From the NCBI GenBank assembly GCA_017991395.1, contig JAGOQQ010000005.1:4726-68725 (forward strand): 64,000 nt of DNA, read 5' to 3'. The DNA comes from Minisyncoccota bacterium (GTDB taxonomy: Bacteria > Patescibacteriota > Minisyncoccia > Phycocordibacterales > UBA9973). This document shows, piece after piece, positions 2,446 to 61,756 of this stretch (its first letter is position 1; each line of letters starts with the position of its first letter). The translations under genes and the position numbers were made by a program. The notes beneath the pieces were generated by a model that was given only the letters and a program-made list of their open reading frames with translations, made no database searches and had not been told where the DNA came from.

Positions 2446-2854
2446 GTGAGGTTGATTGTACATTCCATGAATAGAATAATTAACAACTCAAATAGAAAAA
2501 GTTTTCGTAAAGAGTTGCGGAAAAATCAAACTCCGCAAGAAATTATTTTATGGTCTAAGGTACGAAATAATCAAACTGGTTTTAAATGGCGCCGACAAGT
2601 AAGTATCGGCTCATATATTGCTGATTTTTACTGTAAGGAAAAATTCTTGGTAATAGAAATTGATGGTTCACAACACGAAGATGCTAAGCTTTATGACAAG
2701 CAAAGGGAGAAATTTTTTCAAAATTTAGGAATTAAAACTCTTCGCTTTTGGAACAACGAAATAAATACCAACATCGAAGGTGTGATGCTTAAAATTTATT
2801 CCGAATTATCAAATACACTACCTCACCCCAACCCTCTCCTGGCAAGGAGAGGGG
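2417..2854 (+). mobile_element. DUF559 ORF bracketed by ~35-bp hairpin-containing terminal inverted repeats. It may be a small selfish element.
   Basis: The left repeat is CCTCCTCTCCTAGACAGGAGAGGATTGAGGTGAGG (2417-2451). The reverse complement of the right repeat (2821-2854) is CCCTCTCCTTGCCAGGAGAGGGTTGGGGTGAGG. The two differ only in the loop and a few spacer bases. Confidence 0.35.
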
Positions 2855-2883
2855 GCACCCAAAAACTCAACACACCAAAATGA
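2446..2883 (+). CDS. DUF559 endonuclease-domain protein with a Vsr-like fold
   Basis: It contains FLVIEIDGSQHED ... LGIKTLRFWNNEI, a typical DUF559 core. It starts with GTG after the RBS AGGAGAGG. Its stop overlaps the miaA ATG (ATGA). The C-terminal 20 aa are encoded by the right inverted repeat. Confidence 0.65.
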   Translation: MRLIVHSMNRIINNSNRKSFRKELRKNQTPQEIILWSKVRNNQTGFKWRRQVSIGSYIADFYCKEKFLVIEIDGSQHEDAKLYDKQREKFFQNLGIKTLRFWNNEINTNIEGVMLKIYSELSNTLPHPNPLLARRGGTQKLNTPK

Positions 2884-5423: not shown

Positions 5424-5517
5424 AGTGGGTATACAATACTATAATTTGTTTAAAAATGCAAGGATATATTATGGACAAAAGTGCAATAAAATGCTATTTT
5501 ATTTAGGTGTAAAGTAT

Positions 5518-7127: not shown

Positions 7128-9824
7128 TTACATCGACTCCTTCTTGCTTCTTGTCTTTGCAATCGGGCTTTTTGTTTTTGATCTACGAGTATCTATGTGA
7201 AGTGCACCATCTTTTACCGACACGTACACCACATCACCCTTTTCTGCTCCCTTAGTAATGATATGTGATGCGACAGGATTCAAAATCTTTGTTTGAATCA
7301 GACGATTGAGTGGTCTTGCACCATACTGTGGATTGTACCCTTCCTTACCGAGCAGTTCGAGTGCTTCATCGGTGATTTGAAGTGCAATATCTTTTGCAGT
7401 CAATCGTGCGCGAACTTGCTCGATTCTGATTTCTACAATATTTCTAATTGATTGAGGTGAAAGAATATCGAATAGAATAATTTCATCAAGACGATTCAAA
7501 AATTCTGGGCGGAAATGATCTTTGAGACTTGTCATAACCTTTTCTTTTGTCTGAACATAATCATCTGTAGCGGTGTTGTTAGAAAATCCTATTGTCTCCA
7601 TTTTTTCAATATGCCGTGAACCAATGTTTGAAGTCAGAATAATTACAGAATTTCGGAAATTCACCACTCTTCCCTTTGCATCAGTGAGTCGTCCTTCATC
7701 AAGCACTTGAAGGAGAATATTGAATACTTCAGGATGAGCTTTTTCAATTTCATCAAACAAGATTACTGAGTACGGGCGATGTCGGACCGCTTCGGTAAGC
7801 TGACCTGATTCATCGTGTCCTACATATCCTGGTGGCGAACCCACAAGCTTTGACACACTGTGTCGCTCCATATACTCAGACATATCTACTCTAATAAGCG
7901 CCTTGTCATCATTGAAAAGAAATTGCGCGAGTGCCTTTGTGAGTTCTGTCTTTCCGACTCCTGTTGGACCAAGAAATATAAATGAACCGATTGGGCGATT
8001 TGGATCTGCGATTCCAGCACGTGAACGGCGAATCACATCAGATATTTTGGTAATTGCTTCACTTTGTCCTATCACACGTTTTGTGAGCTCTTCTTCCATT
8101 CGAGCAAGTTTTGCACGTTCTTCTTCCAGCATCTTTGCAAGAGGAATACCTGTCCATCGTGCGACAACTTCTGCAATATCTTCACTTGTAATTTCTTCTT
8201 TGAGAATACGACGAGATTTTTGGAGCTTCTTCAGTCGTCCGAGCTTCACGTCGAGTTCTTTTGAGAGAGTAGGAATTTTTCCATAACGAATTTCAGCTGC
8301 TCGAGCAAGGTCTGCACGCATTTCTGCTTGCTCAGCTTCTAGTCGGAGTGCATCCAAATCTTTTTTGATTGTCCGAATCTCTGTGACGGTAGTTTTCTCG
8401 TTTTGCCACTTGAGTTCAATTTCTCGAGTTTTTTCTTTGTGGTTTGCAATTTCTTTATCAATATCTTTGATACGATTTTTTGTTCCCTTGTCTTCTTTGT
8501 CGGCAAGTTCAACTTCTTTTTTCAATGCTTCTTTTTCGATTTCAAGTCGCATAATTTTGCGATGGGCTTCATCGAGAATTGGAGGTTTATTTTCAAGTGC
8601 AATCCGAAGAGAAGATGCTGCTTCGTCTATGAGGTCGACAGCTTTGTCAGGAAGATTTCGATTTGTGATGTATCGTACAGAGAGATTGACCGCAGATTGA
8701 ATCGCGTCATCCGTAATACGCACGCCGTGATAGAGTTCATATTTTTCTTTGAGTCCACGCAAAATAGCAGTCGCGTCCTCAGGTGATGGTTCTTCTATGT
8801 AGACAGGCTGAAATCGCCGAGCGAGGGCTGGATCCTTTTCAATGTGTTTTTGATATTCTTTAAGAGTTGTTGCTCCGATTGCACGAAGTTCTCCGCGTGA
8901 GAGTGCCGGCTTGAGCATGTTTGATGCATCAAGTGAACCTTCTGAAGCCCCTGCGCCTACGATAGTATGAATTTCATCAATAAAAAGAATAATCTTTCCA
9001 TCAGCACGTTCGATTTCTTTCATGAGTGATTTCAATCGCTCTTCAAATTCTCCGCGGTATTTTGTACCTGCAATAAGTGAGCCCAGATCAAGAGAAACAA
9101 GCTCTTTGTCTTTCAAAGATTCTGTAACATCACCTTTGGCGATGCGTTGTGCCAATCCTTCTACTACTGCAGTCTTACCTGTACCGGGTTCTCCAATCAA
9201 AATTGGATTGTTTTTTGTACGACGTGAAAGAATCTGCATAATCCGCATTATTTCTGTATCGCGTCCAATCACAGGATCAAGCTTGTCTTCTTTTGCAAGT
9301 TTTGTAAGATTGCGAGTGTATTTTGTGAGTACTCGAAACTTTTTTGGAGAATTTGTGTCGGTAATATTTTGAGCTTTGAATTCTTCGACAATTTTCAGCA
9401 CTTGATCTTTGCTAATTCGGAAACGAGTGAGAAGTTCTTTTGCATCACTTGGAACTTCGAGAAGTGCAACAAAAATATGTTCTGTTGATACAAATTCATC
9501 TTTCAAATATCCTGCGACTTTGCTTGATGTTTCGATGACTTGTGCGAGGTCAGGCGTGAGGTACAGCTGAAACGAGGGTGACGCAACATTGTTGACGCGA
9601 GATTCAGGTGCTTCGATATTTTCAAGTACCGAATCAGTAAGAAGCATCGAATCTATCTCGAGTCGTTCGATGATTGAAAGCACCATAGACTCCTCTTGTA
9701 AAAGGAGTGCGGTGAGAAGATGAAAAGAGTTCACATGGTTTTGACCTCGCTCAATAGCGAGTTCGTGTGCCTTCTTGATAGCTTCTTTTGCTTTTGATGT
9801 GAAGTGATTGAATGGAGGCATCAT
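7128..9824 (-). CDS. clpB: ATP-dependent chaperone ClpB (Clp/Hsp100 AAA+ family)
   Basis: It has an N-terminal Clp N domain, two AAA+ modules ([16 protein letters not shown]) and a long coiled-coil middle domain between them. Confidence 0.9.
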
Positions 9825-15969: not shown

Positions 15970-16042
15970 CCACCCGTAGCTCAGCTGGTAGAGCACTCGA
16001 CTCTTAATCGATTGGTCGTTGGTTCGATTCCAACCGGGTGGA
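15970..16042 (+). tRNA. tRNA-Lys (anticodon CTT)
   Basis: The acceptor is ccacccg/cgggtgg. The D-arm is gctc-agctggta-gagc. The anticodon loop is ctCTTaa. The T-arm is gttgg-ttcgatt-ccaac. Confidence 0.8.
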
Positions 16043-16468
16043 CACGAATTAAAAAGAAGAACTTCTTCTTGTTTTTAGTTCGTGTCCAAGCCGCAGTAAT
16101 GTTTTTGTTTGAGCGAAGCGAAAGGCAAAAACCACGAGGCGGGCTCGCGAAATTTTTACGTCAGTAAAAATATTTGTGAGGACACGTAGTAGCAAGAACT
16201 TCTTCTTGTTTTTAGTTCGTGTCCAAGCCGCAGCGATGTTTTTGTTTGAGCAAAGCGAAAGGCAAAAACCGCGAGGCGGGTGAGAAAGTGTGGGACACTT
16301 TCGCAAGACCTTTTGAGAATTTTTGTGAGCGAGCGAAACAAAAAGTCCAAAAGGTGTACAGAATCTGTAAGATTCGCGAAATTTTTACGTCAGTAAAAAT
16401 ATTTGTGAGGACACGTAGTAGCAAGAACTTCTTCTTGTTTTTAATTTAAAAAAAGATAGTAACAATAT
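16043..16468. repeat. Tandem ~140-bp direct repeats (about 2.5 copies) with hairpin modules between two tRNA genes
   Basis: aagaacttcttcttgttttta occurs three times (16063-, 16203-, 16420-). gttcgtgtccaagccgcag..gtttttgtttgagc.aagcgaaaggcaaaaacc.cgaggcggg occurs twice. cgcgaaatttttacgtcagtaaaaatatttgtgaggacacgtagtagcaag occurs twice. The first hairpin pairs with the tRNA-Lys 3' end (tggacacgaa / ttcgtgtcca). Confidence 0.7.
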
Positions 16469-18096: not shown

Positions 18097-18475
18097 TATC
18101 TGGTATTATAAGCTACATAGCCATAATTTGCGAACATATATATGATCCTAAACCCAAAACATCGAAAAAAAGTGAAAATTATCTGGAGTATTATTTCTAT
18201 TTTAATTGTACTTTCAATGATACTTCTCTATACACCAGTGTTTAGATAGCAATAAGCATGAGAACATAGAACGTGAAGCGTAGAACGTAAAATACTGATT
18301 TTGTGTCATTCTGAACTTGTTTCAGAATCTCAAATACTAAAGAGCGACGGCATAGCCGTCGCTCTTTTTGATTTTCTACATACAAAATATAGTGTTTCGA
18401 GGTATATTTAATTTGCTTGACTTTTTCGGAATTATGTAGTATAATACACACAAAAGAACTTAAAAACTATATCTC

Positions 18476-19011: not shown

Positions 19012-20835
19012 CTATCCTTCTCTCATCATTTTCAAAAAAACGTCATGAGGAATATTGACCTTTGCGCGAGCTTGCATCTTTTTCTTTCCTTTCTTTTGTT
19101 TTTCGAGCAATTTCATTTTTCGAGTAATATCACCTCCATACAAATATCCCGTCACATCCTTTCGAAACGCGGACAATGTCTTTGAAGCGATAATTCTACC
19201 ATTTGCATATCCTTGAATCTTAGTGACGAACATTTGCCGTGGAAGAATACCATGCAATTTTTCAACCGCATTTTCTGCTTCTTCTTGTGCACGACGTTTT
19301 GAAATAACTCGCGTAAACGCAGGAACAATTTCTTCTGCAACAAAAATATCAAGTCGTGTGACATCAGCGAGACGCATATCTGCAAATTCGTAGGAAATTG
19401 ATGCATACCCAGATGAAATACTTTTGAGTTCATCAAAAAAGTTTCGCATCATTTCTCGAAGTGGCATAAGAACATTGATCGCAGAACGATTGTCTCCAAA
19501 GTTTTCTGTTTCGTGTACCTCTGCTTCATGATCATACAAAAGTGGCATAAGTGAACTAAGATAATTTGATGGTGTGATGATTTTTATTTTCACCCACGGC
19601 TCCATCACTTGCGTAAAATCACCATCGTTTGGAAAAAGATGAGGAGAATAAATAGTTTGTTCTTTACCGTTTTTGAGTTTGACAATATACGTAATCGAAG
19701 GCGTGGTGACTACAAGTTCAAGGTTGAATTCTCTGCGAAGTCTCTCTGAAATGATTTCCATATGAAGCATCCCAAGGAAGCCACATCTATACCCACGTCC
19801 AAGTGCCCCAGAAGCCTCTTCCTCGAATGTAAACGCAGAATCCGAGAGCTTGAGTCGAGACAAGGCAAGCTTGAGCTCTGGGAAGTCGTCCGCACTTTCT
19901 GGATAAATAGACGCCCACACCACAGGACGTGGGAGCATGTATCCAGGAAGTGCTTCTTGAGGATTTTTGAAGAGTGTAATCGTATCTCCCACAGACGCGA
20001 TACCTGGGCGTTTGATACCGGTCACAATATATCCAATTTCACCCGCACAAATTTTTTCTTTTGAAACTTCGTCAGGACTAAAGGTACCAACTTCAAGTGT
20101 GATAAATTTTTCATTTGAAATTCTAAAAAGAAGTGTGTCGTGTGGCTTCACCTGTCCGTTCAAAATTCGAACATACACAATCACACCTTGGTGGTTTGAG
20201 TATTTGAAATCAAACACAAGTGCCTGAAGCACAGACGCGGAGTCACGCGGATCTGACGCGGATGAACGCGGAGAAGTAATAGTTGGAGCAGGTACTCTTT
20301 CTTTTACAGCCCTTAAAAGTTCAGCTACACCCTGTCCGGTTTTTCCAGAAACCTCAAGCACAGTATCTGGATCAACATTTAGAAGTGCGGCAATTTCAAG
20401 CTTAGTTTCGTCCACGCGTGCAAGTGGTGAATCCACTTTTGACACCGCGGGAATAATCACCAGTCCACTTTCGCGCGCCATTTGAAGTGTAGTGAGAGTC
20501 TGCGCTTGAACACCTTGAGTAGAGTCAACAAGAAGAATAGATCCTTCTACTGCTTTCAATGCACGAGATACTTCGTATGAAAAGTCGATGTGTCCAGGAG
20601 TATCGATGAGGTTCATCACATACATCTGTCCATCAATTTCGTATTCCATTCGCACAGGTTGCATTTTGATTGTAATTCCCCGCTCTCGTTCAAGCTCCAT
20701 ATTGTCTAGTACCTGATCACGCATTTTGCGAGATTCAATAGTATGAGTCACCTCAAGCATACGATCGGCAAGCGTAGACTTGCCGTGGTCGATGTGGGCG
20801 ATAATAGAAAAGTTTCGGATATTTTCAGGCTTCAT
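19012..20835 (-). CDS. lepA: elongation factor 4 (LepA)
   Basis: The G domain has [10 protein letters not shown] and DTPGH. The LepA-specific C-terminal domain is present. A repeat-encoded peptide, SPRSSASDPRDSAS, is inserted in the linker after the G domain. Confidence 0.9.
   Translation of the reverse strand: MKPENIRNFSIIAHIDHGKSTLADRMLEVTHTIESRKMRDQVLDNMELERERGITIKMQPVRMEYEIDGQMYVMNLIDTPGHIDFSYEVSRALKAVEGSILLVDSTQGVQAQTLTTLQMARESGLVIIPAVSKVDSPLARVDETKLEIAALLNVDPDTVLEVSGKTGQGVAELLRAVKERVPAPTITSPRSSASDPRDSASVLQALVFDFKYSNHQGVIVYVRILNGQVKPHDTLLFRISNEKFITLEVGTFSPDEVSKEKICAGEIGYIVTGIKRPGIASVGDTITLFKNPQEALPGYMLPRPVVWASIYPESADDFPELKLALSRLKLSDSAFTFEEEASGALGRGYRCGFLGMLHMEIISERLRREFNLELVVTTPSITYIVKLKNGKEQTIYSPHLFPNDGDFTQVMEPWVKIKIITPSNYLSSLMPLLYDHEAEVHETENFGDNRSAINVLMPLREMMRNFFDELKSISSGYASISYEFADMRLADVTRLDIFVAEEIVPAFTRVISKRRAQEEAENAVEKLHGILPRQMFVTKIQGYANGRIIASKTLSAFRKDVTGYLYGGDITRKMKLLEKQKKGKKKMQARAKVNIPHDVFLKMMREG
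20231..20272. repeat. In-frame 11-bp-periodic TCCGCG(T)NNNN tandem array inside lepA
   Basis: cagacgcggag tcacgcggat ctgacgcggat gaacgcggag. This encodes the extra peptide SPRSSASDPRDSAS between the G domain and domain II. Confidence 0.8.
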
Positions 20836-20963
20836 GTCTTGCCATCATATCAGAAAAGTGTTGGAAAATAAAGGCCTCTTAAACGCGAACGAGACGCGAA
20901 CTGAACGCTGACTGGATGCGAATTTAGCGAAAATCACAAGAAAAACTTAATTATTAATAATCA

Positions 20964-21015: not shown

Positions 21016-21267
21016 ATGGAGCCAAAAATAGCTATCGAGCTAATTCAAACTGGAAAATTATCAACGGAGGAAATTCTTCAGATTGGTAAAGAAGTAAAGG
21101 ATCAAAAGGTCTGGCAGGAGATTATTCAACAAATCGACTGGTCAAAATTTGAAATCAATGAAATGCTCAAGATTGGCAAAGAAGCAAATGATCCGAATGT
21201 CTGGCAAAAGATTGTTCAACAAATTAAATCTGGCAAATTCAAACAATACGAAGACCATCGTGGTTGA
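21016..21267 (+). CDS. small hypothetical protein with two ~35-aa internal repeats
   Basis: The repeats are EEILQIGKEVKDQKVWQEIIQQI and NEMLKIGKEANDPNVWQKIVQQI. The gene has a strong promoter and a terminator hairpin, gctcccctttattggggagc plus a T-run (21306-21336). Confidence 0.5.
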   Translation: MEPKIAIELIQTGKLSTEEILQIGKEVKDQKVWQEIIQQIDWSKFEINEMLKIGKEANDPNVWQKIVQQIKSGKFKQYEDHRG

Positions 21268-21390
21268 CAGATTTTTTTCAAATCTAAAAACTTAATTATT
21301 ATCATGCTCCCCTTTATTGGGGAGCTTTTTTATTTTTCATTTTCTGCGTTTTTTCCGCGTTCAGTCCGCGTGGTTCCGCGTCTTAGACGT

Positions 21391-23082: not shown

Positions 23083-23308
23083 TGTTTCTATTATATACGA
23101 GGAAAGGATGTATATTCAAACTGTTGATAAATTCCAATGAGCGGCGGCCTTTGGCCGCCGCTCATTGTGCGCGTAATAACAAAAGAATTTTAGATCCTGA
23201 AACAAGTTCAGGATGACACGGAATTCAGTATTTCAGGTTCTACGCTCCACGTTTAACGTACAACTTTCCCCGCTATTCCCTCATCCTTATTCCCTAACCC
23301 CTCTTTCT

Positions 23309-25969
23309 TTACCCTACCACTATATTTATAATTCTTCCTTTTACATACACAAACTTTTTAATTTCTTTTCCTAGAAGCCACGCGATTATCTTTGGATCTT
23401 GAAGTATCATATTTTTTACTTCGTCCTCATCTGCATTTTCATCAAGTGTAATTTCGCTACGCACCTTGCCATTTACCTGAATCCCAATTGTCACACCCTC
23501 GTGTGCAATTTTCTTTTTGTTTACTTTTGGCCACTCACTTTGATGTATTGAGTTTTTCATTCCAAGATTCTCCCAAATTTCTTCTGTCATAAATGGTGCA
23601 AACGGAGAGAGGAGTTTTATGAAATGAATATAATCATCTTTTGTTATGGCAGGCATATCATCAATCTGATTTTGTAAAATCATTAATGCTGAAATAGAAG
23701 TGTTGAAAGAAAATCCTTCAATGTCTTTTTGAACTTTTTCTGTGGTCTTGTGTAAAAGTGATTCAAATTTGTTGTATTTTTCGAGAGTTTCTTTTGAAAT
23801 ACTTTTCACAACTTTTTCCTGTGTACGCCATACTCGCTCAAGAAAACGTCTTGGCCCCATAATACTATCTGTATTCCACAATACCATTTGATCAAATGGT
23901 CCCATAAAAGATTCATACACACGAAGTGTGTCTGCACCATACGTCTTCACAATGTCATCAGGATTGATAACATTTCCCCAACGCTTAGACATTTTTCTTC
24001 CATCTTGGGCAATTACAAAACCTTGGTTGCGAAGTGCTTTGAACGGTTCTTCTGTGGGAACATATCCCATATCTTTCAAAAACTTGTGCCAAAAACGAGA
24101 ATATAAAAGGTGTCCTGTCGCATGCTCTTGTCCTCCAACATACATATCTACATCTTTCCAGTACGCAATTGCCTTTTTGTCTGCAAAAGCTTTTTTGTTT
24201 TTTGGATCCATATAGCGAAGAAAGTACCATGAAGATCCAGCCCATCCCGGCATTGTATTTGTCTCATATCCAGATTTGACCCAAGATGATACTGTCGCGA
24301 GAGGACTCTCACCTGTTCCAGACGGTGCGTATGATTTTACGTTTGGAAGCTTGAGTGGCAAAGATTTTACCTCACTTATTGTGCCATCTTTTTTGTGAAC
24401 AAGAGGAATTGGCTCACCCCAATATCTTTGTCGTGCAAAAATCGCATCACGCATTTTGTATTTTGTTACAATACGTCCACCAACTTTTTTTGTAATAGCT
24501 ATGCGCGCTTCGTGTGTTGAAAGTTTGTCAAAATCACCCGAATTGATCAGCTTGCCTTCTTCGCCGAGATAACAATCTTTTCCTTGTACAACTTTGACCA
24601 AAAATGACTCAAGTGTTTCAAGATCCATTCCAGAACCCGATGGCTCAACCACACACTTTTTTTCAAGTCCGTATTTTTCTGCAAATTCAAAATCTCTTTT
24701 GTCATGAGAAGGTACTGCCATCACCGCACCTGTGCCATATGACGCAAGTACATAATCAGCAATCCATACTGGAACTTCTTCACCATTTGCGGGATTGATA
24801 GCAAACACACCGTCAAGAATAACTCCTGACTTTTCTTTTGAAATATCTGTGCGATCGTGAATATCTTTTAATTTTGCACGAGCAATATATTCTTCAACCT
24901 CTTCTATATTTTTAGTATTCTTTTTCAATCTTTCAACAAGTGTGTGTTCGGGTGCAAGTACAACATACGTCACACCAAAAAGAGTATCCGCGCGAGTAGT
25001 GAAAACTTTTAATACAGCGTCTAGCGACTTGCTACTAGCGACTAGTTTGAAATCAATTTCGCTTCCTTCAGATTTTCCAATCCAATTTCTTTGAATTTCT
25101 TTTATGTTGTCGTTCCAATCAAGTCCATCAAGTCCGTTCAAAAGTCTATCTGCATATGCTGTGATTCGCATAAACCACTGTCGCATCATTTTCTTTGTAA
25201 CAGGATGCTCTCCGCGTTCTGACACTGGGCCACTTGGTCCATCAATAATCTCATCATTTGCAAGCACAGTCCCAAGTTCTTCACACCAATTCACTTCACT
25301 ATATCCTTGGTATGAGAGACGGTAATTCATCAGCATTTTTTCACGCTCATTTGACGACATTTTTTTCCAATCTTCTTTTGAAAAAAGCGAAGTGCTGTCG
25401 GAACATTCTGCCTCTACATTTTTATTTCCTTCTTTACTAAAAATAGTTTCAAGTATTTTTATGTCTCGTGCGCAATTTTTCTTTTTGTCATACCAAGAAT
25501 TATAAAGTTGCAAAAAAATCCATTGAGTCCATTTGTAATAGCTCGGGTCGTGAGTTGCAATCATCTTGTCCCAGTCATACGAAAATCCAATGATTTCGAG
25601 TTGCTTTCGATATTGTTTTACAAGTGTATCAGTAAAAGGCCCCGGATTCTTTCCAGTTTTGATTGCGTATTGTTCTGCAGGAAGTCCAAATGAATCAAAT
25701 CCCATCGGATGAAGTACGTTGTATCCTTGCATTCTCTTGAGTCGTGCAAACACATCAGACGCAATATACCCCCGCGGATGTCCCACGTGAAGTCCTGCCC
25801 CAGATGGGTACGGAAACATATCCAATACATAGCACTTACGCGGAAGTGACGCGGACTTTCGCGGACTAGACGCGGAAGGATTCTTTGTTTTATAAACCTT
25901 TTTCTTCTCCCACTGTTTTAGGATTTTTGCCTCAATTTTCTTGTGGTCATATTGCGTTAGTTTTTTCAT
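23309..25969 (-). CDS. leuS: leucine--tRNA ligase
   Basis: It has the HIGH-region FPYPSGAGLHVGHP and the KMSKS-region KMSKRWGN, with class I editing and anticodon-binding domains. A repeat-encoded insert, NPSASSPRKSASLPRK, lies near the N-terminus. Confidence 0.9.
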   Translation of the reverse strand: MKKLTQYDHKKIEAKILKQWEKKKVYKTKNPSASSPRKSASLPRKCYVLDMFPYPSGAGLHVGHPRGYIASDVFARLKRMQGYNVLHPMGFDSFGLPAEQYAIKTGKNPGPFTDTLVKQYRKQLEIIGFSYDWDKMIATHDPSYYKWTQWIFLQLYNSWYDKKKNCARDIKILETIFSKEGNKNVEAECSDSTSLFSKEDWKKMSSNEREKMLMNYRLSYQGYSEVNWCEELGTVLANDEIIDGPSGPVSERGEHPVTKKMMRQWFMRITAYADRLLNGLDGLDWNDNIKEIQRNWIGKSEGSEIDFKLVASSKSLDAVLKVFTTRADTLFGVTYVVLAPEHTLVERLKKNTKNIEEVEEYIARAKLKDIHDRTDISKEKSGVILDGVFAINPANGEEVPVWIADYVLASYGTGAVMAVPSHDKRDFEFAEKYGLEKKCVVEPSGSGMDLETLESFLVKVVQGKDCYLGEEGKLINSGDFDKLSTHEARIAITKKVGGRIVTKYKMRDAIFARQRYWGEPIPLVHKKDGTISEVKSLPLKLPNVKSYAPSGTGESPLATVSSWVKSGYETNTMPGWAGSSWYFLRYMDPKNKKAFADKKAIAYWKDVDMYVGGQEHATGHLLYSRFWHKFLKDMGYVPTEEPFKALRNQGFVIAQDGRKMSKRWGNVINPDDIVKTYGADTLRVYESFMGPFDQMVLWNTDSIMGPRRFLERVWRTQEKVVKSISKETLEKYNKFESLLHKTTEKVQKDIEGFSFNTSISALMILQNQIDDMPAITKDDYIHFIKLLSPFAPFMTEEIWENLGMKNSIHQSEWPKVNKKKIAHEGVTIGIQVNGKVRSEITLDENADEDEVKNMILQDPKIIAWLLGKEIKKFVYVKGRIINIVVG
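25838..25880. repeat. In-frame 11-bp-periodic TCCGCG array inside leuS
   Basis: acgcggaagtg acgcggacttt cgcggactag acgcggaagg. This is the same repeat family as in lepA and the intergenic copies. Confidence 0.8.
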
Positions 25970-26615: not shown

Positions 26616-26852
26616 TTTTTCTAAGATTGTTTAGAAACAGTCTACTGTATTTGGTTTAAAAAGCAAGTAAAATACAAAGTGGGAAAATGCCGAGGCATTT
26701 TCCCACTGTATTTTTTTACCCCTCCTCGCATTCACTTCGTTCATGTCGTCCTCCCCTCTAGGGGAGGCTTTAATTCCGAATTCACTTTTCACTAACCCTA
26801 TTTACTAATCCCTGTTTTCTAAAGTCTAAAGACTAACTACTAAAGACTCTAA

Positions 26853-27899
26853 TTAAAGTCCCTTTGCTTCAACTGGTTTTGGGTATGGCGGGTACATATC
26901 CTTGTCGATAGTTCGTTCATAGCAGGTTCTACCTATTTTGTGATCCCAAGATTCATTTGTAGCTACACCAGGGTATGGATAGTTCGAACTTGTTGCCACA
27001 TCTCTCTCTGTCATCACAGGATACGCAATTCCACCACCAGAATACTCTTGCCATCCTTTTGGCATATCAGCACTAAATGTCGCACATAGTTCAAATGTCA
27101 TATCACTCTTTTTTGCATATTCATATGAAAGACCTTTTTCAAATTCCGGATCAACAGGAATCGTACTACCTGAAAGCGGATTTGAAAGTAATGCAAGTGT
27201 ATCAGGGAGCATTTCTTTTTGTTGCCAATAATTAATGACACTCCATTGGATTGATATCAGGTCTTGTACACGTTTGTCATCAAGACGAAGTGCGCGCTGA
27301 CTTTTCGGAGAACCAATAACAGAAAAGCTAAATGCGACAAGAAGTATCACCCATACAGACGCTTTGACCGCAGACCAAATACCTACTTTCATTTTCCATA
27401 CCCTTTCTCTGTTTGTAATTTCAAAAATATAATACACGCCCACAAATACCGCCACGAGAAGCGTCACGAGTACTTTGAATATAAAGCGTGAAGTGATTTC
27501 GCCGGAAACAAAATAACGCACAAGTGTCACGAGATCAACCACGACGACAATACTCGACAAAAACAAAATCAAATACACCATCCATTTTCGAATAGCAGTA
27601 TCAATATTTCCAAGTCCCGCTTTTGATGTCTTGCTCCAAAAATACGAAAGTGCCAAAAATACTGGGAACACTATAATAAGTGTCGCGATAGATGATCTGA
27701 TTGCATCATAGTTGTAGCTTGTGTATCCATATTGATATACAGCATTTAATACGTCTGGAAACTTTTTATCGAGAACATCGAAAGCAAGTGTAAGAAACGA
27801 TGTCACGACCGTAATCAATGACACAATTACGCCAAGCGACAAAAAGAAAAACTTCGGTGTCATTTTTGGCTGATTTTGCTGAATAGTTGTGTTTTCCAT
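26853..27899 (-). CDS. hypothetical polytopic membrane protein with a C-terminal extracytoplasmic domain
   Basis: Several TM helices lie in the first ~200 aa. Confidence 0.5.
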   Translation of the reverse strand: MENTTIQQNQPKMTPKFFFLSLGVIVSLITVVTSFLTLAFDVLDKKFPDVLNAVYQYGYTSYNYDAIRSSIATLIIVFPVFLALSYFWSKTSKAGLGNIDTAIRKWMVYLILFLSSIVVVVDLVTLVRYFVSGEITSRFIFKVLVTLLVAVFVGVYYIFEITNRERVWKMKVGIWSAVKASVWVILLVAFSFSVIGSPKSQRALRLDDKRVQDLISIQWSVINYWQQKEMLPDTLALLSNPLSGSTIPVDPEFEKGLSYEYAKKSDMTFELCATFSADMPKGWQEYSGGGIAYPVMTERDVATSSNYPYPGVATNESWDHKIGRTCYERTIDKDMYPPYPKPVEAKGL

Positions 27900-27957: not shown

Positions 27958-28506
27958 ATGACATCTCGTAAAACACCAAAAACAAAAACCCGAGTTCGCC
28001 CACGCCTTGAGCGCTGGACAGAAAATGCTATTAGCTGGGTCGGCTCAAAAAACTCAGTTGCGGTACATACCGTCTTTTTTATAGGGATGTTTCTTTTGAT
28101 ATTCCTTGGGGTAAAACCTGAGACAGTACTACTTGTACTTACGACAATTGTGTCACTCGAAGCGATCTACTTGGCAATCTTCATTCAAATGACCGTCAAC
28201 AAAAACACATTCGATATTGAAGAGATTCAAGAAGACGTGGAAGAAATTCAAGAGGATGTGGAAGAGATTCAGAAAGATGTCGATGAGATTCAAGAGGATG
28301 TGGATGAAATTCAAGAAGACGTCGAAGAAATTCAGGAAGACGTGGAAGAAATTCAAGAGGATGTTGATGAGATTCAGGAAGATGTTGACGAGATCGAAAA
28401 AGAAGAAGAGACAGCAGAACAAAAGCATGACCGCGAACTTCTCACAAAGATTGAAGGAACACTTGGAATTTTAATCAAAGAAATTGAACAGTTGAAAAAG
28501 AAATAA
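27958..28506 (+). CDS. Membrane protein (2 TM, DUF1003-like) with an acidic C-terminal heptad array
   Basis: The array is (E/D)EIQEDV x9, encoded by 21-bp tandem repeats at ~28219-28395. A terminator, ccccgcacacgtgcgggg, follows at 28510-28535. Confidence 0.55.
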   Translation: MTSRKTPKTKTRVRPRLERWTENAISWVGSKNSVAVHTVFFIGMFLLIFLGVKPETVLLVLTTIVSLEAIYLAIFIQMTVNKNTFDIEEIQEDVEEIQEDVEEIQKDVDEIQEDVDEIQEDVEEIQEDVEEIQEDVDEIQEDVDEIEKEEETAEQKHDRELLTKIEGTLGILIKEIEQLKKK

Positions 28507-35723: not shown

Positions 35724-35749
35724 ACCAAACCACTTACAACCCTAAAAAA

Positions 35750-35908
35750 TTACTTCTTCTTATCAGTGTCTGTTCCTTTGAATGCACCAGTAAAATGCTT
35801 AATTGCATCAACGATACTCTTTGCAAGTTCTGGAATCTTCTTTGATCCAAACAAAAGCACGAGCACGACTGCTATTATAATAATTTCTTTTGTTCCTAAT
35901 CCAAACAT
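35750..35908 (-). CDS. tatA: Sec-independent translocase subunit TatA/E
   Basis: The 52-aa product is MFGLGTKEIIIIAVVLVLLFGSKKIPELAKSIVDAIKHFTGAFKG... It is under 60 aa and so is missing from the ORF track. Confidence 0.75.
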   Translation of the reverse strand: MFGLGTKEIIIIAVVLVLLFGSKKIPELAKSIVDAIKHFTGAFKGTDTDKKK

Positions 35909-35946
35909 ATAAATATAAGTTAAAAATACACTCTAATAAATTGTTG

Positions 35947-36102
35947 CTACTTTTTTGCACCATCTGCTGATTTGAAAATACCCATAAGGTGTCTTACTGC
36001 ATCAGCAATACTCTTTGCAAGTTCTGGAATCTTCTTTGATCCAAACAAAAGCACGATCACGACTGCAATGATAATAATTTCTTTTGTTCCTAATCCAAAC
36101 AT
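35947..36102 (-). CDS. tatA: Sec-independent translocase subunit TatA/E (second, tandem paralog)
   Basis: The 51-aa product is MFGLGTKEIIIIAVVIVLLFGSKKIPELAKSIADAVRHLMGIFKSADGAKK. Confidence 0.75.
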   Translation of the reverse strand: MFGLGTKEIIIIAVVIVLLFGSKKIPELAKSIADAVRHLMGIFKSADGAKK

Positions 36103-36113
36103 AATTTTGTGTG

Positions 36114-42142: not shown

Positions 42143-42220
42143 AATTAGTTTATAGTTTTAAGTTGATAGTTTATAGAATGAATGCGACCACAAACTTCTA
42201 TGTTATAAAGTATAACAAAT

Positions 42221-42829
42221 ATGTATACTATACCCATGACAAACGGTGAAAAACTCACACATCTCCAAATTGGCTGGCATACGCGAAACACCTGCCCGCT
42301 CAAAAAATTCGCTATACAACCAGTCTTTGGCGAAGGCAATCCTGAGGCAGATATTGTATTCATCGGCGAAGCCCCGGGAAAACTTGAAGATATTGAAGGA
42401 AGACCATTTGTGGGATCATCAGGAAAGTTTCTTTCTGAAATGCTTAGTTCAATAAAAATAGAAAGAGAGAGCGTGTATATCACCAATATGGTAAAGTATC
42501 GTCCGCCAAACAATCGGGACCCACTTCCACTTGAAAAAAATGCGTGCAAAGGATGGCTGATTGATGAGCTCAATTTTATACAACCAAAACTAATTGTTTT
42601 TCTTGGTCGACACGCAATGAGCAATTTTTTTCCTGAAGAAAAGATAAGTGAAGTACATGGAAAGCTCCTTACGAAAAAATTTACGAATCTCGCGACCTCA
42701 CACTTTCTTCCGCTCTATCATCCAGCGTCTGCCCTCTACAATGGTGGGTTGCGCGCTACACTAAAAAAAGACTTCAAAAAAATTCCTGCATTTTTGAAAA
42801 AAATTATATCGCGAACGCACGCGGACTAG
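42221..42829 (+). CDS. udg: uracil-DNA glycosylase, family 4
   Basis: It contains [17 protein letters not shown] and [12 protein letters not shown]. The last 5 codons and the stop are supplied by the TCCGCG repeat array. Confidence 0.8.
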
Positions 42830-43053
42830 ACGCGAACCTAACGCTGACAGATACATTCACAGTCTTTAGTGTTTAGTTGTTAGTCTTTAGTGAATTTCTG
42901 TATTGTGTCATCCTGAACTTGTTTCAGGAACTCAAGGTTTTTAATTCATTCTTACCCCTCTGCCCTTCGGGCACCTCCCCTCAAGGGGAGGCTTCATACA
43001 TCCGCGTCCATCTGCGTAAAGTCAGCGTTTAGTCTGCGTTAGTTCGCGTCTTA
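42830..43053. repeat. mosaic intergenic repeat block
   Basis: It holds a TCCGCG-type 11-bp array (42811-42850), an ACTAAAGACTN 11-bp array (42859-42893) and the hairpin gtgtcatcctgaacttgtttcagga (42905-42933). It also holds the hairpins gcccttcgggc and cctcccctcaaggggagg (42975-42992) and a second GCG 11-bp array (43009-43053). Confidence 0.75.
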
Positions 43054-44289
43054 TTATTTCCGTACTCGATACTTCCACCCTTCCACAAACAAACTAAAGA
43101 ATTTGAGTGGTGCGACAATGCCTGCAAAATACACGAAGTCAATTGCGTGACGAATAAAATATCCCAATCCTCCATAAATTTTTATTGGGCCGTACACAAA
43201 CACACCCCAGTCATTACCCACTGGAATCGAGAGCGCAACCTTCTTCGGTGAATACAGTGCGCGGTTTTTGATACCACGAATCTGTCCCAAAATTTGTTTT
43301 GCGACGAATGCACCATCATACATTGCCGTCTGTGCAAGGCCACTATATTTTGTATTTGCCGCATCACCGACTATATATACATTGGTATGACCATGTGCTT
43401 GCAAATACTCATCGACAACCACCCTTTTATTATCAGCAAATTCGAGTCCGTTTATTTGTGAATATATTCGACTCAATCGAGTTCCTGCTGTCCAAATAAC
43501 CGTCTTTGCTTTTAGTGACATATCTTTCATAAAAACCTGTTCCACTTCCTCACGCTCGAGACGTCGATTGAGAAAAATATTCACACCGAGTTTTCGTAGT
43601 TGTGCAAGAATTTTTTCTGACACATCAGGAGGTAGCTGTGGTACCACTCGTGGATTTGACTCAATAAGATCAACGGTGATAAATGACGGATCTACCTCAG
43701 TAAGTTTGGCAATTTTTTTCATAAAAATAGCGAGGTCGCCCGCAACTTCTACGCCAGAAGGCCCTCCACCCACCACAACAATATGAAAATGTGACACGAG
43801 TTCATTTTGCGATGGATGCGTATGTGTTTTGAAAAGAGTTGTAATATGTTCCTTCAAACGATTTGCTTCTTTGATTGATTTGAAACCAAATGACATTGTG
43901 TCGAGTCCTGGCACATCAAAATACGTCGTCTCACTCCCCATCGCAAGCACAAGATAATCCGCAATATACTCACCTGTGTCTTGGCAGACAACTTTTTTTC
44001 CTATAACATCTACAGACGTCACTGTATCAATAAGTATTTCAACATTACTTGGAACCATTTCTTCAAGTGGTATCGCCACTTCAATTGGCGAAGAACCAGT
44101 GACTACACGATATAGCCCTGGATAATATTCAAAATAAGACTTGTTTGAAATCAAAGTCACCTTCACCGAACTTCCGACTCTAAATGCAATCCGTCGAGCT
44201 GTTTCAATACCAGCAAATCCTCCCCCAACCACAATCACCCGAGTTACCAATGAATTTTGTGTCATAGATAAAAAAAGTATACCATGCAC
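43054..44289 (-). CDS. ndh: type II NADH dehydrogenase / FAD-dependent pyridine nucleotide-disulfide oxidoreductase
   Basis: It has two Rossmann GxGxxG motifs (VVGGGFAGIE and VVGGGPSGVE). Confidence 0.75.
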   Translation of the reverse strand: MHGILFLSMTQNSLVTRVIVVGGGFAGIETARRIAFRVGSSVKVTLISNKSYFEYYPGLYRVVTGSSPIEVAIPLEEMVPSNVEILIDTVTSVDVIGKKVVCQDTGEYIADYLVLAMGSETTYFDVPGLDTMSFGFKSIKEANRLKEHITTLFKTHTHPSQNELVSHFHIVVVGGGPSGVEVAGDLAIFMKKIAKLTEVDPSFITVDLIESNPRVVPQLPPDVSEKILAQLRKLGVNIFLNRRLEREEVEQVFMKDMSLKAKTVIWTAGTRLSRIYSQINGLEFADNKRVVVDEYLQAHGHTNVYIVGDAANTKYSGLAQTAMYDGAFVAKQILGQIRGIKNRALYSPKKVALSIPVGNDWGVFVYGPIKIYGGLGYFIRHAIDFVYFAGIVAPLKFFSLFVEGWKYRVRK

Positions 44290-60410: not shown

Positions 60411-61459
60411 TGGCACAGTGGGTGGATTTTGTTTTTACAAAATCCACCTTTTTTATTTGGAACAATCTATACGAAGGATTACACTATATGTATATGAAAA
60501 AGTTTTTAATATTTCTTGGTGTCTTGTGTGCACCACTTATTAGTCTCGCGCACGTTGGATATGTTGTCGGACCCGAAGAGCTTCCCTTGTATATGGGTAA
60601 TGACGGAGCATTTTTGTGGAGTGCATTATCGGACTCATACAATGTCATACTTACTCTAGTAGTGCTCGCATTGTTTATACTCGTGTACTGGATTGCGCAC
60701 CACAATTATTTTATTGAAAAGTATCTCAAAAAGATTCGTGCAAAAATTGAAACCTATTATGAATTCATTCCATGGATTCTACGCCTCTCACTTGGAATAG
60801 CACTCATTGGCGCGGGCTCAGCCCACACGCTCATTTCTCCCCTCTTGCCACAAATGCCACATTTTGCACTCATGCAAGTGGTACTCGGCTTTATGATGCT
60901 TGCAGGATTCTTGCTCACACCAGTAATTATATTTACAATAGTCTTGTTTTTGTTTGCACTCCTTCAAGATGCATACCTGATCGGAAATATTGAATTTATT
61001 TTTGGAGCATTCGCATTGCTCATACTTGGCAACGACCGCCCAGGACTTGATGACATTTTGATGATTCCCGTACATAAAATTGAATCACTCAAAAAATATG
61101 TACCTCTCGTGATTCGACTTGGCCTCGGTGGTGCAATGATATATCTTGCATTATTTGAAAAACTTTTCAATCCACATATTTCAGAACTCGTTGTGACAAA
61201 ATTCAATCTCACTTCGGTGATTGGTGTCTCGCCTGAAATGTGGGTTCTCGCAGCAGGACTGATTGAACTACTCGTTGGACTATTTATTTTTATTGGATAT
61301 CATACACGACTCACATCTGCGATAGCATTTCTCGTGATCACCACAACATTTTTCTATTTCAAAGAAGATGTGTACTCACACGTTACACTCTTTGGAATGC
61401 TTTCAGTACTGTTTATTACAGGAGGAGGCGCGATGAGTGCGGACTTTAATCGCAGATAA
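60410..61459 (+). CDS. hypothetical polytopic membrane protein
   Basis: It has about 8 TM segments. An alternative start is at MYMKKFLIF (60488). The final codons and stop are encoded by a GCGGAC-type repeat. Confidence 0.5.
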   Translation: MAQWVDFVFTKSTFFIWNNLYEGLHYMYMKKFLIFLGVLCAPLISLAHVGYVVGPEELPLYMGNDGAFLWSALSDSYNVILTLVVLALFILVYWIAHHNYFIEKYLKKIRAKIETYYEFIPWILRLSLGIALIGAGSAHTLISPLLPQMPHFALMQVVLGFMMLAGFLLTPVIIFTIVLFLFALLQDAYLIGNIEFIFGAFALLILGNDRPGLDDILMIPVHKIESLKKYVPLVIRLGLGGAMIYLALFEKLFNPHISELVVTKFNLTSVIGVSPEMWVLAAGLIELLVGLFIFIGYHTRLTSAIAFLVITTTFFYFKEDVYSHVTLFGMLSVLFITGGGAMSADFNRR

Positions 61460-61756
61460 TCACAGAAAACACGCGGATAGTCGCGGACAAGAGAACACTT
61501 ATGAAGGGCTAAAGCTTAAAGAAATTGGTTTCCTAAAACCAGAATCCTCCTCATTTGAATCATTGCGCAAGGCTGACGAGCCGAGCATAGCAAAAATTCA
61601 GCAGAATTTTATGCGTGATTAAGGGAACACTTATGCAAAGCTCAAAATGAGGAGGATTGGAAAGAGAAAACATCTTTGAGATCCTGAAACAAGTTCAGGA
61701 TGACACAATGCAGAATTTAACTAAAACCTAAAGACTAGCGACTAAAGACTGAATTT

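Follow-up and report, generated by a model that had tools for sequence, protein, structure and literature searches.

We analysed a 64,000-nucleotide (nt) stretch of a Minisyncoccota genome (contig JAGOQQ010000005.1 of GCA_017991395.1; hereafter, the window), in which the region at 42830–43053 belongs to a set of intergenic blocks built from the same small repeats, namely iteron arrays with an ACGCGGA core (module A), a hairpin with a GTCAT head (hairpin B), degenerate heptamer arrays (module C and its relatives), and a CT-rich double hairpin (module D). Our favoured reading, to which we assign a probability of roughly 55%, is that these blocks are mosaics of orphan repeats from three nuclease-associated classes that expanded recently in this lineage. 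They would thereby resemble the bacterial interspersed mosaic elements (BIMEs) made of repetitive extragenic palindromes (REPs) or the Neisseria intergenic mosaic elements (NIMEs), reportedly described by Parkhill et al. in 2000. The repeats are probably recently spread selfish or recombination-modulating elements, not a chromosome-partition array. An earlier reading of the letters alone (the sequence-only reading) had called the blocks composite and REP/BIME-like, and the term is apt, as they are mosaics of small families that are missing from the compared orthologous sites in close relatives.

The window is a chromosomal segment of a metagenome-assembled genome (~39% G+C) from the candidate phyla radiation (CPR), with housekeeping genes for LepA, LeuRS, MurJ, UvrA, and UvrB and with CPR-typical domains (DUF5671, lamin-tail). 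Its UvrB and LeuRS show 100% identity to proteins recorded under Candidatus Pacebacteria/Paceibacteria. Only ~9% of it is intergenic, and the six regions singled out by the sequence-only reading are indeed intergenic and among the longest such stretches of the window. The same organism is represented by contig JAGORK010000006.1 of GCA_018062865.1 (L127), which runs beyond the window end; together, the two provide ~76 kb of host DNA. The modules recur there, with one more hairpin B, two more copies of module D, and two more A arrays in L127. Relatives compared site by site at syntenic loci were L122 (UvrB 98% identical), L123, L124, and L130 (UvrB 92%, LeuRS 82%), L125 (UvrB 90%), and L129 (LeuRS 81%), and modules were counted in ~90 kb of the relatives' DNA. 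Pfam was run on 45 window open reading frames (ORFs), and NCBIfam was also run on four small block-adjacent ORFs. With the Rfam 15 covariance models (gathering and E-value thresholds), only tRNAs passed and no family was found at any module; hairpin B gave no match, and module D gave a 19-bit, chance-level match to whalefall-1.

The focal block consists of the following features:

42809..42851, plus strand: module A array a4, four units with the core (A/T)CGC(G/T)(G/A)A at 42809, 42819, 42830, and 42841
42861..42895, plus strand: module C heptamer array, AGTCTTT AGTGTTT AGTTGTT AGTCTTT AGTGAAT
42892..42904, plus strand: conserved spacer GAATTTCTGTATT, with the 12-nt consensus WWWTWCTGNWTT, found 5' of every hairpin B in this organism
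42905..42931, plus strand: hairpin B, GTGTCATCCTGAACTTGTTTCAGGAAC, with a GTCAT head, an 8-bp stem, and a 5-nt loop, similar to the SRM motifs discussed below
42951..42994, minus strand: module D, with D1 GCCTCCCCTTGAGGGGAGG, then D2 TGCCCGAAGGGCA, then GAGGGGTAA, co-oriented with the Pyr_redox gene
42997..43049, minus strand: module A array a7, five units spaced 10, 11, 11, and 10

Array a4 overlaps the last seven codons and the TAG stop (42827–42829) of the UDG gene, array a7 begins 4 nt past the TAA stop of the Pyr_redox gene, and the two form an inverted pair that encloses the whole focal block. Read in the sense of the upstream gene, the blocks share one order: stop codon, A and/or 7-nt arrays, the 12-nt spacer, hairpin B and/or D, and terminator. 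Thus, the UDG 3' end carries four A units, five C units, and B, and the Pyr_redox 3' end, on the opposite strand, carries five A units and D. LeuRS is followed by ~13 heptamer-phased units, B, and a GC-rich hairpin; the DUF5671 gene by heptamers, 14-mers, D, and a terminator; UvrB by C and B; and a 35-aa membrane ORF by heptamers, B, and a terminator. In L127, MreC is followed by six A units, B, D, and a shared terminator, and TGT by four A units, heptamers, and D. Co-orientation with the upstream gene holds for 5/5 copies of hairpin B, 4/4 of module D, and 6/6 A arrays at gene 3' ends. The sequence-only reading had described shared modules in varying order and orientation; the sharing is real, whereas neither order nor orientation varies with respect to the upstream gene. 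The four window copies of hairpin B lie on strands +, +, −, and − within one replichore (the GC skew is monotonic), and their orientation therefore follows transcription, not replication. The A arrays are likewise split 5:4 between the strands, and we accordingly rejected a replication-strand bias.

Could the modules act at the level of RNA? Since their polarity follows transcription, it is worth considering that they are 3'-untranslated-region (3'-UTR) elements, protecting the 3' ends of mRNAs, insulating convergent transcription or terminating it, and providing back-up stops in all three frames. All modules are co-oriented and lie between a stop codon and a terminator, and 42700–43150 separates convergent genes with hairpins B and D as its only candidate terminators. 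As single strands, both hairpins form stable folds and the arrays show no structure. Copies of hairpin B in other phyla tend to follow a co-oriented stop codon (61 co-oriented vs 40 anti-oriented among the matches listed, many of them 8–16 nt past the stop). Furthermore, runs of at least four stop codons at 7-nt spacing occur 7 times vs 2.3 expected, all inside heptamer arrays; A arrays often begin within the last codons of a gene, and three ORFs that run into arrays end in ...AD*. Neither hairpin has a T-run, a scan found no canonical intrinsic terminator in 42700–43150, and separate true terminators follow the blocks at other sites. We consider an RNA-level role unlikely in view of four observations presented below: the compared sites in close relatives lack the elements, the enzyme that recognises a related hairpin binds it as single-stranded DNA (ssDNA), the same motifs bracket nuclease genes in inverted orientation elsewhere, and some arrays are antisense to their gene or free of stop codons.

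The four copies of hairpin B that the sequence-only reading had listed were all recovered, at 18303 (+), ~23193 (−), 42905 (+), and ~61680 (−), with at most two mismatches and 0 matches expected by chance. Besides the focal copy, they are:

18303..18329, plus strand: hairpin B with the stem variant ATTCTGAA/TTCAGAAT, followed by an intrinsic terminator at 18339–18370
23193..23219, minus strand: hairpin B in the LeuRS 3' region
61680..61706, minus strand: hairpin B in the UvrB 3' region, missing at that site in L122, L123, and L125

With the L127 copy included, GTGTCAT precedes the stem and a C follows the palindrome in 5/5 copies, and the canonical ...GAATC or ...GGATC tail is present in 4/5. 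The focal copy ends in ...GGAAC instead of ...GGATC and has lost the canonical ATC; its last stem pair is therefore broken and its tail is non-canonical. The hairpin B DNA fold has a predicted energy of −6.1 kcal/mol (z = −3.4). The copies are shared as larger units, with a 92-nt unit of array, spacer, and hairpin at UvrB that is 80% identical to 42860–42951 and other units of ~70 nt at 85–88% identity. The short-read assemblies L001 and L128 break exactly at hairpin B.

Hairpin B is not confined to this organism. In a scan of one genome per species, its exact 23-mer, GTCATYCTGAACTTGTTTCAGRA, was found at at least 120 loci in at least 12 phyla: Patescibacteria (nine candidate lineages, from Gracilibacteria to Saccharibacteria), Bacteroidota, Alpha-, Beta-, and Gammaproteobacteria, Spirochaetota, Elusimicrobiota, Bacillota, Melainabacteria, Campylobacterota, Dependentiae, Caldiserica, Ignavibacteriota, Rhodothermota, and Balneolota. 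Unannotated copies are also present in plasmids of sphingomonads, Treponema, and Sulfurovum, as well as in 34 viral contigs. Among the matches listed, two variable stem positions are paired in 262/272 copies, with five pair types. Perfect hairpins in the 120 loci listed begin with GTCAT far more often than with any other head. Many of them are further GTCAT...ATC hairpins whose stems differ by compensating changes; one variant is exactly the Neisseria dRS3 sequence, which co-occurs with hairpin B in the Patescibacteria locus L073.

These features recall the targets of the Ssn nucleases. SsnA is a 94-aa GIY-YIG nuclease that cuts dRS3/NTS (CGTCATTCCCGCGMAVGCGGGAATCYRG) and related SRM motifs (Chenal et al. 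2025, PMC11893778). It binds and cuts ssDNA only, on one strand and a few nt 5' of the motif, and does not bind NTS RNA; the GTC before the palindrome weighs most for cleavage and the C after it for binding (PMC11893778). The ssnA genes are typically bracketed by SRMs, and the Neisseria system restricts incoming transforming ssDNA (PMC11893778). CPR/Patescibacteria and Bacteroidota are absent from that paper. Hairpin B shares with the SRMs a GTCAT head, a ~20-nt palindrome, and a C directly after it, and it is likewise directional, multi-copy, intergenic, and present across phyla. The gene layout is also similar. L114 contains a 97-aa GIY-YIG ORF (Pfam E = 2.7e-16) with hairpin B 30 nt upstream and an inverted GTCAT hairpin after it, and L071 has the same layout at the gene's 3' end; both match the SRM–gene–inverted-SRM arrangement around a ~95-aa single-domain GIY-YIG gene. 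Ssn-like GIY-YIG genes lie within 2.3 kb of hairpin B in L097, L032, and L115, and a truncated GIY-YIG ORF abuts it in a Berkelbacteria locus. On the other hand, the stem of hairpin B is CTGAA/TTCAG, whereas that of the NTS is G+C-rich, and the copies here are single, co-oriented with a gene, and placed after tandem arrays and a 12-nt spacer, which is not described for the NTS.

The window and L127 contain no match to the canonical SRM string, while the NTS control passes. The stem of hairpin B is richer in A and T and therefore does not match the degenerate string. In view of the SRM features and the Ssn-like neighbours, but also of the string mismatch and of the negative search for an ssn-like gene in the window, L127, and ~90 kb of relatives, we file hairpin B as a candidate SRM-class variant, SRM-like in its features. 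Motif scans for Y1/RAYT, DUF559, and GIY-YIG around hairpin B gave no credible Y1 transposase, either at the 120 listed loci or in the window, and only occasional GIY-YIG. Hairpin B combined with its spacer gave 0 matches in the JGI metagenomes, and searching the literature with the sequence strings of hairpin B and of the A arrays yielded a single Neisseria match, to the dRS3 string. A parS site or LexA box was also considered for hairpin B and rejected; the similarity is limited to a partial 7-mer and was judged coincidental by eye.

Module A comprises 39 units with the core ACGCGGA in nine arrays, seven in the window and two in L127. Successive cores are spaced by 10 nt (11 times) or 11 nt (15 times), with a mean of 10.6, and 7/9 arrays begin with 10, 11, which yields a 21-nt super-unit. 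Across the 39 units, the core positions are nearly invariant and positions 8–10 almost free, with a spacer information content of ~0.1–0.5, although the core-information values are partly inflated by how the units were picked. Phased ACGCG-N6 triplets occur 6 times in the window vs 0.07 expected by chance. The sequence-only reading had missed three window arrays, at 21339–21381 (−) and, inside coding sequences, at 20235 and 25838. Apart from a4 and a7, the window arrays are:

20883..20931, plus strand: array a2, between the LepA promoter and the promoter of an 83-aa ORF (21016–21267)
21339..21381, minus strand: array a6, 10 nt past the MurJ stop
61438..61491, plus strand: array a5, overlapping the stop codon of a DoxX-domain gene and kept in the 98% relative L122
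20235..20276, plus strand: array in the LepA coding sequence, antisense to the gene, encoding SPRSSASDPRDSAS and displacing the linker of relatives
25838..25880, plus strand: array in the LeuRS coding sequence, antisense to the gene, encoding PSASSPRKSASLPR, where relatives have SKKGAK

The arrays in LepA and LeuRS are in frame and encode 7-aa repeats (SASDPRD and SASSPRK) in loops that differ among relatives. Their antisense orientation argues against a 3'-UTR function. Rickettsia palindromic elements, which are palindromic and 100–150 bp long, also lie in frame in essential genes at tolerated loops; the insertions here differ in being 42-nt iteron arrays with a 21-nt (7-codon) period.

Could the arrays be helically phased? 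The sequence-only reading had attributed a common ~11-bp phasing to all modules and had derived from it a nucleoid, partition, or curved-DNA array. This phasing did not hold up, as module C has a period of 7 (TRF and a lag scan) and only module A, at 10/11, is near-helical. The same applies to the supposed pyrimidine-rich 11-phased array at 23230–23300, which lies in the LeuRS tract (23225–23308), where self-identity is 0.51/0.53/0.56 at lags 7/14/21 and 0.25 at lag 11. It nevertheless deserves consideration that a DNA-binding protein with a nucleoid, partition, or regulatory role binds module A, and perhaps C, as a helically phased array. With 10 and 11 in alternation, four to six A cores stay on the same face of B-DNA, conservation is seen in the core and not in the free spacers, and two A arrays are kept in L130, one of them with reshuffled units but unchanged phasing immediately upstream of the LepA promoter. 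Periods of 7 bp or ~11 bp in direct repeats also recall the 11-bp ParR/parC iterons and the 7-bp heptads of the omega protein, which are plasmid centromeres or operators, and a further comparison is with the direct repeats of OmpR/PhoB. In contrast, the arrays here are chromosomal, have degenerate units, and are dispersed at gene 3' ends, where they overlap stop codons, and inside essential coding sequences. No ParA/ParM/ParR-type gene was seen among the 45 window ORFs screened with Pfam or the four small block-adjacent ORFs also screened with NCBIfam, gain and loss are fast between 98% relatives, the heptamers are too degenerate for a defined operator (lag identity 0.58–0.67), and, as shown next, the array in its widespread form keeps strictly to 10-nt units and the array class goes with PDDEXK_3 genes. 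A dedicated array of this kind is thus quite unlikely. Binding of the A cores on one face is possible, and the candidate binder would most plausibly be a PD-(D/E)XK nuclease, not a partition protein. A DnaA box, Chi, and a CsrA site (GGA) were considered for ACGCGGA(T); the unit variants ACGCTGA and ACGCGAA speak against them.

The favoured assignment of module A to a nuclease-associated class draws on arrays in other genomes. The widespread form is GGACGCGGAT-N-A with a 10-nt unit (222/262 spacings among the matches listed), an inverted second array follows in 27/131 of these matches, and the metagenome loci among them range from 24 to 71% G+C. The pattern ACGCGGA-N3-4-ACGCGRA-N3-4-ACGCNGA is matched by numerous metagenome loci and by 20 viral contigs. 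The window units, mostly ACGCGGAC with 10/11 spacing, are a variant of this class and share with it the ACGC(G/A/T)GA core, the 10–11-nt spacing, and the inverted array pairs. A Pfam search of 150 ORFs beside A-type arrays gave no dominant family; PDDEXK_3 ('GxxExxY protein') appeared twice, with E = 3.5e-40. The PDDEXK_3 genes of L192, L244, and L165 are bracketed by module-A-type arrays, the 5' one of which runs into the ORF start, and together with those of L307, L308, L311, and L313, they have ACGCGGAT-type arrays or single inverted ACACGGAT cores. When loci were chosen by the protein alone, the core flanked 2/3 viral and 4/4 plasmid PDDEXK_3 genes, that is, 5–6 of 7 loci as arrays or single inverted copies, vs 0/6 loci selected for DUF559. 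No PDDEXK_3 gene lies beside the arrays in the 64-kb window, the association being known from other genomes alone. The family was listed as of unknown function in a 2012 survey, and literature searches found no description of its association with arrays. SRM hairpins are not linked to module-A-type arrays, with one exception (L140).

In phage contigs, namely L253 and L266 (IMGVR_UViG_3300033991_000115) and also L254 and L256, GGGACGCGGAT-N-AACGCGGAT-N-AACGCGGATCGGAAGGA recurs in several copies, each just upstream of the ribosome-binding site of one of a series of successive genes, with five copies in the first contig. The iteron class may thus also serve as a regulatory or intergenic element in phages.

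Module D hairpins have the form CCTCCCCT-NN-AGGGGAGG, and the window matches at 26750 and 42974, vs 0.02 expected, bear out the hairpin of the sequence-only reading, whose transcription was off by one base. The four copies (two in the window and two in L127) consist of D1, D2, and GAGGGGTAA, with a compensatory change in D2. The sequence-only reading had further related module D to the inverted repeats around a DUF559 gene, and this relation is confirmed by the loci described below. The features concerned are:

26716..26770, minus strand: module D, with the D1 hairpin and GAGGAGGGGTAA; the D2 position is taken by other sequence
2446–2883, plus strand: DUF559 gene (Pfam E = 3.4e-34)
2417–2451 and 2821–2853: flanks of the DUF559 locus, with CT-rich hairpins and inverted GAGGTGAGG / CCTCACCCC boxes on both sides

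CT-rich hairpins flank 6/6 DUF559 loci (L314–L319) from four phyla when judged by eye, and 5/6 by a strict count, vs 0/7 PDDEXK_3 loci. These loci come from Deinococcus, two cyanobacterial genera, and Sphingomonas and Azospirillum plasmids, with hairpins on both sides, and the Azospirillum and window flanks have CCTCACCCCAACCC(C)TCTCC in common. Module D matches the class design, namely polypyrimidine/polypurine arms (CCYCYCC...GGRGRGG) beside a GAGG or CCTC box. It therefore looks like the orphan end of a DUF559 element, and the window DUF559 locus would be its autonomous-looking counterpart. No DUF559 relatives were found in viral contigs, and literature searches did not find the partnership with CT-rich hairpins. 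DUF559 was grouped with the Vsr endonucleases in the 2012 survey and is still annotated as a domain of unknown function.

The heptamer arrays contain 4–13 degenerate units. Those outside the focal block are:

18261..18302, plus strand: AGAACAT AGAACGT GAAGCGT AGAACGT AAAATAC TGATTTT, downstream of the conserved 35-aa membrane ORF (18142–18249)
23220..23308, minus strand: 7-nt-phased tract, AAAGAAA GAGGGGT TAGGGAA TAAGGAT ... GAATTCC, directly past the LeuRS TAA stop
26791..26861, minus strand: 14-mer and heptamer (AGTCTTT-type) arrays that begin at the former stop codon of the DUF5671 ORF, which is two codons longer than in relatives
61720..61751, minus strand: module C heptamer array directly past the UvrB stop

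Tandem 7-mers precede all window copies of hairpin B and a minority of those in other phyla. A lag identity of at least 0.7 was found in five upstream flanks and in no downstream flanks, compared with 2/375 random segments. In Bacteroidota (L112, L091), the heptamer arrays 5' of hairpin B have no stop codons, which speaks against an RNA-level role; as a stop codon per unit is a property of the heptamer arrays here and not of their Bacteroidota equivalents, we rejected it as a selected trait and treat it as a minor point. In L117 (Falkowbacteria), L116, and L052 (Magasanikbacteria), tandem units of 21–22 nt lie upstream of hairpin B, each repeating the GTCATCCTGAA left hairpin arm without the right arm. 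Intergenic tandem heptanucleotide repeats of no assigned function are known from heterocystous cyanobacteria as short tandemly repeated repetitive (STRR) sequences; their unit sequences are different, and the arrays here are short, degenerate, and 5' of a hairpin module. A heptamer array without an adjoining hairpin, (TAGTTTA) x4.4 at 42146–42176, is located upstream of the UDG gene, where promoters diverge. Within ORF 27958–28506, positions 28219–28394 hold 8.4 tandem copies of a coding 21-nt unit, GAAGAGATTCAAGAAGATGTG, and the period that it shares with the A super-unit is probably coincidental.

We next compared the block sites with those of close relatives. At the DUF5671 gene, LeuRS, small ORF, and MreC sites, the relatives have the stop codon followed directly by a terminator, and at the uvrB 3' region (L122) and TGT, they have unrelated filler. 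Hairpin B and module D have 0 and 0 copies in the ~90 kb of relatives vs 5 and 4 in the ~76 kb here. The plain terminators and filler at the compared sites therefore point to a recent lineage-specific burst, and the pattern indicates recent intragenomic spread rather than ancient conserved sites. That the compared sites in close relatives lack the elements also implies that the elements are dispensable, contrary to an RNA-level function. The two A arrays shared with L130 are, by this comparison, older: the a2 site has different units and spacers with the same phasing, and a6 is nearly identical. In the window, a2 (+) and a6 (−) form an inverted pair around the 83-aa cargo ORF, which has an internal duplication; the same inverted pair in L130 (8996–9466) encloses a 91-aa ORF without BLASTP similarity to it. 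Unrelated small ORFs between the same array pair in two genomes suggest cassette exchange between the arrays.

Two other sequences were noted at these variable sites. 'Module E', with a ~55-nt core, ATAAAATTCTGCTGAATTTTTRCTATGCTCGGCTCGYCAGCCTTGCGCAATG, lies at 61543–61658 (core at 61561–61612), enclosed by inverted repeats, and also in L122 (~8000–8110) and L124 (~5430–5500); the inverted repeats differ (AATCCTCCTCATTT... in the window and AAAATCAATTTTAAAAAC... in L122). It is 3' of uvrB in the window and 3' of mreC in relatives, has no Rfam match, and could be a small mobile element or a structured RNA. In the relatives, the TGT 3' end runs into sequence resembling the 5' part of 23S rRNA (…GAACTGAAACATCTAAGTA…AAGTAGTGGCGAGCGAAAGG…), at ~9740–9900 in L122, ~7070–7200 in L124, and ~7720–7850 in L125, which is replaced here by the A-array/heptamer/D block.

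Could the blocks simply be neutral junk, in the form of slipped-strand microsatellites and decaying terminator hairpins without dedicated machinery? The degenerate arrays, the insertion-tolerant sites, and the replacement-type events without clean boundaries would fit such an origin. It would leave unexplained why all 23 nt of hairpin B are the same in at least 12 phyla and why its stems covary, as well as the contrast between core and spacer in module A, which is unexpected from simple unit duplication, the pairing of each repeat class with one nuclease family, and the constant order and polarity of the modules. We regard it as very unlikely and as already disfavoured.

Returning to orphan nuclease-associated repeats, we propose the following mechanism. 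Each hairpin or iteron module would belong to a class that elsewhere brackets a small stand-alone nuclease gene as repeat–gene–inverted repeat, a symmetry at the level of DNA; hairpin B would pair with GIY-YIG Ssn, module A with PDDEXK_3, and module D with DUF559, and the heptamers would fill the space 5' of the hairpins. No nuclease gene lies beside the block copies, and they would therefore be orphan, non-autonomous copies, as in REP/RAYT-like and NIME-like logic. We infer that these particular copies are recognised by the cognate nucleases and that they spread through nicking and subsequent repair or recombination, which would also seed the tandem arrays on their 5' side. Given that the cut of Ssn-type nucleases falls immediately 5' of their motif, repeated nicking and slipped repair would be an attractive origin for the heptamer arrays. 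The modules would have colonised the only permissive DNA of a compact CPR genome, namely the stop-to-terminator stretch and the variable loops of two essential genes. The host might be affected through ssDNA recombination, for example during transformation, with 3'-UTR structures as a side-effect.

Several observations weigh against this reading. An Ssn-like gene was present at only 5/120 hairpin B loci among the matches listed, and neither an Ssn-like nor a PDDEXK_3 gene was found in the 64-kb window, L127, or the ~90 kb of relatives. The published SRM string, HGTCWYN(0-2)YYVSBRHN(0-5)WNVSBRGN(0-2)RNCYNB, misses hairpin B and several GTCAT variants. At position 8, the A units of the window mostly carry C and the widespread form carries T; the former are spaced by 10/11 nt, the latter has a 10-nt unit. 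No partner gene was identified for the heptamer arrays. Neither target-site duplications nor clean insertion boundaries were observed, several events resembling replacements, and strict co-orientation with transcription is unexpected for a purely DNA-level selfish element.

A broader formulation, which we put forward only tentatively and think somewhat less probable than not, is that at least three nuclease–repeat systems run in parallel: Ssn with GTCAT hairpins, PDDEXK_3 with ACGCGGA(T/C) 10/11-nt iterons, and DUF559 (Vsr-like) with CT-rich hairpins. Their orphans would co-accumulate in polar mosaics at gene 3' ends and overwrite loops, and the 5' arrays would be scars of nick repair. The link between GIY-YIG Ssn and GTCAT-type hairpins was already published in 2025. 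What appears to be new is the setting in a CPR genome, the polar architecture with its fixed order, the invasion of LeuRS and LepA in frame, and the partnership of repeats with PDDEXK_3 and with DUF559. The repeat pattern is thereby turned into testable enzyme–substrate pairs. Hairpin B is a candidate new specificity class for the Ssn nucleases, of interest as ssDNA tools, and the iteron arrays and CT-rich hairpins are possible substrates of two very common families, PDDEXK_3 and DUF559. Minimal CPR genomes, too, would undergo rapid lineage-specific repeat invasion that rewrites gene C-termini and LeuRS and LepA loops. Furthermore, the repeats break short-read assemblies and are therefore relevant to the quality of metagenome-assembled genomes.

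The closest known parallels are REPs and NIMEs. REPs are short extragenic palindromes with a conserved 5' head that form mosaic clusters, the BIMEs, at operon ends, and the REP-associated tyrosine transposase (RAYT) is an IS200/IS605-like Y1 transposase. In both REP/RAYT and the present case, the repeat class brackets the gene of an enzyme that recognises, or would recognise, the repeat as a DNA hairpin (REP as discussed in PMC11893778). The differences are that hairpin B has the head GTCAT, not GTAG, has no Y1 transposase near it, and is identical across phyla, whereas REPs are species-specific. The likeness to NIMEs, RS segments bounded by dRS3 (PMC1797815), lies in intergenic mosaics of several short families, including a dRS3-class hairpin, that vary between close strains and have a proposed influence on recombination (PMC1797815). 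NIMEs alternate dRS3 with 50–150-bp RS units, whereas the blocks here contain 7-nt and 10/11-nt arrays and a CT-rich double hairpin in an order that is fixed relative to the upstream gene.

The window holds two further sets of repeats, unrelated in sequence to modules A–D. Near-identical direct and inverted repeats of 73–87 nt (95–99% identity) lie at 16039–16446 among tRNA-Lys and tRNA-Leu genes. The other set, downstream of a large MG2/dockerin ORF at 35743–36103, is a direct repeat of 167 nt (82% identity).

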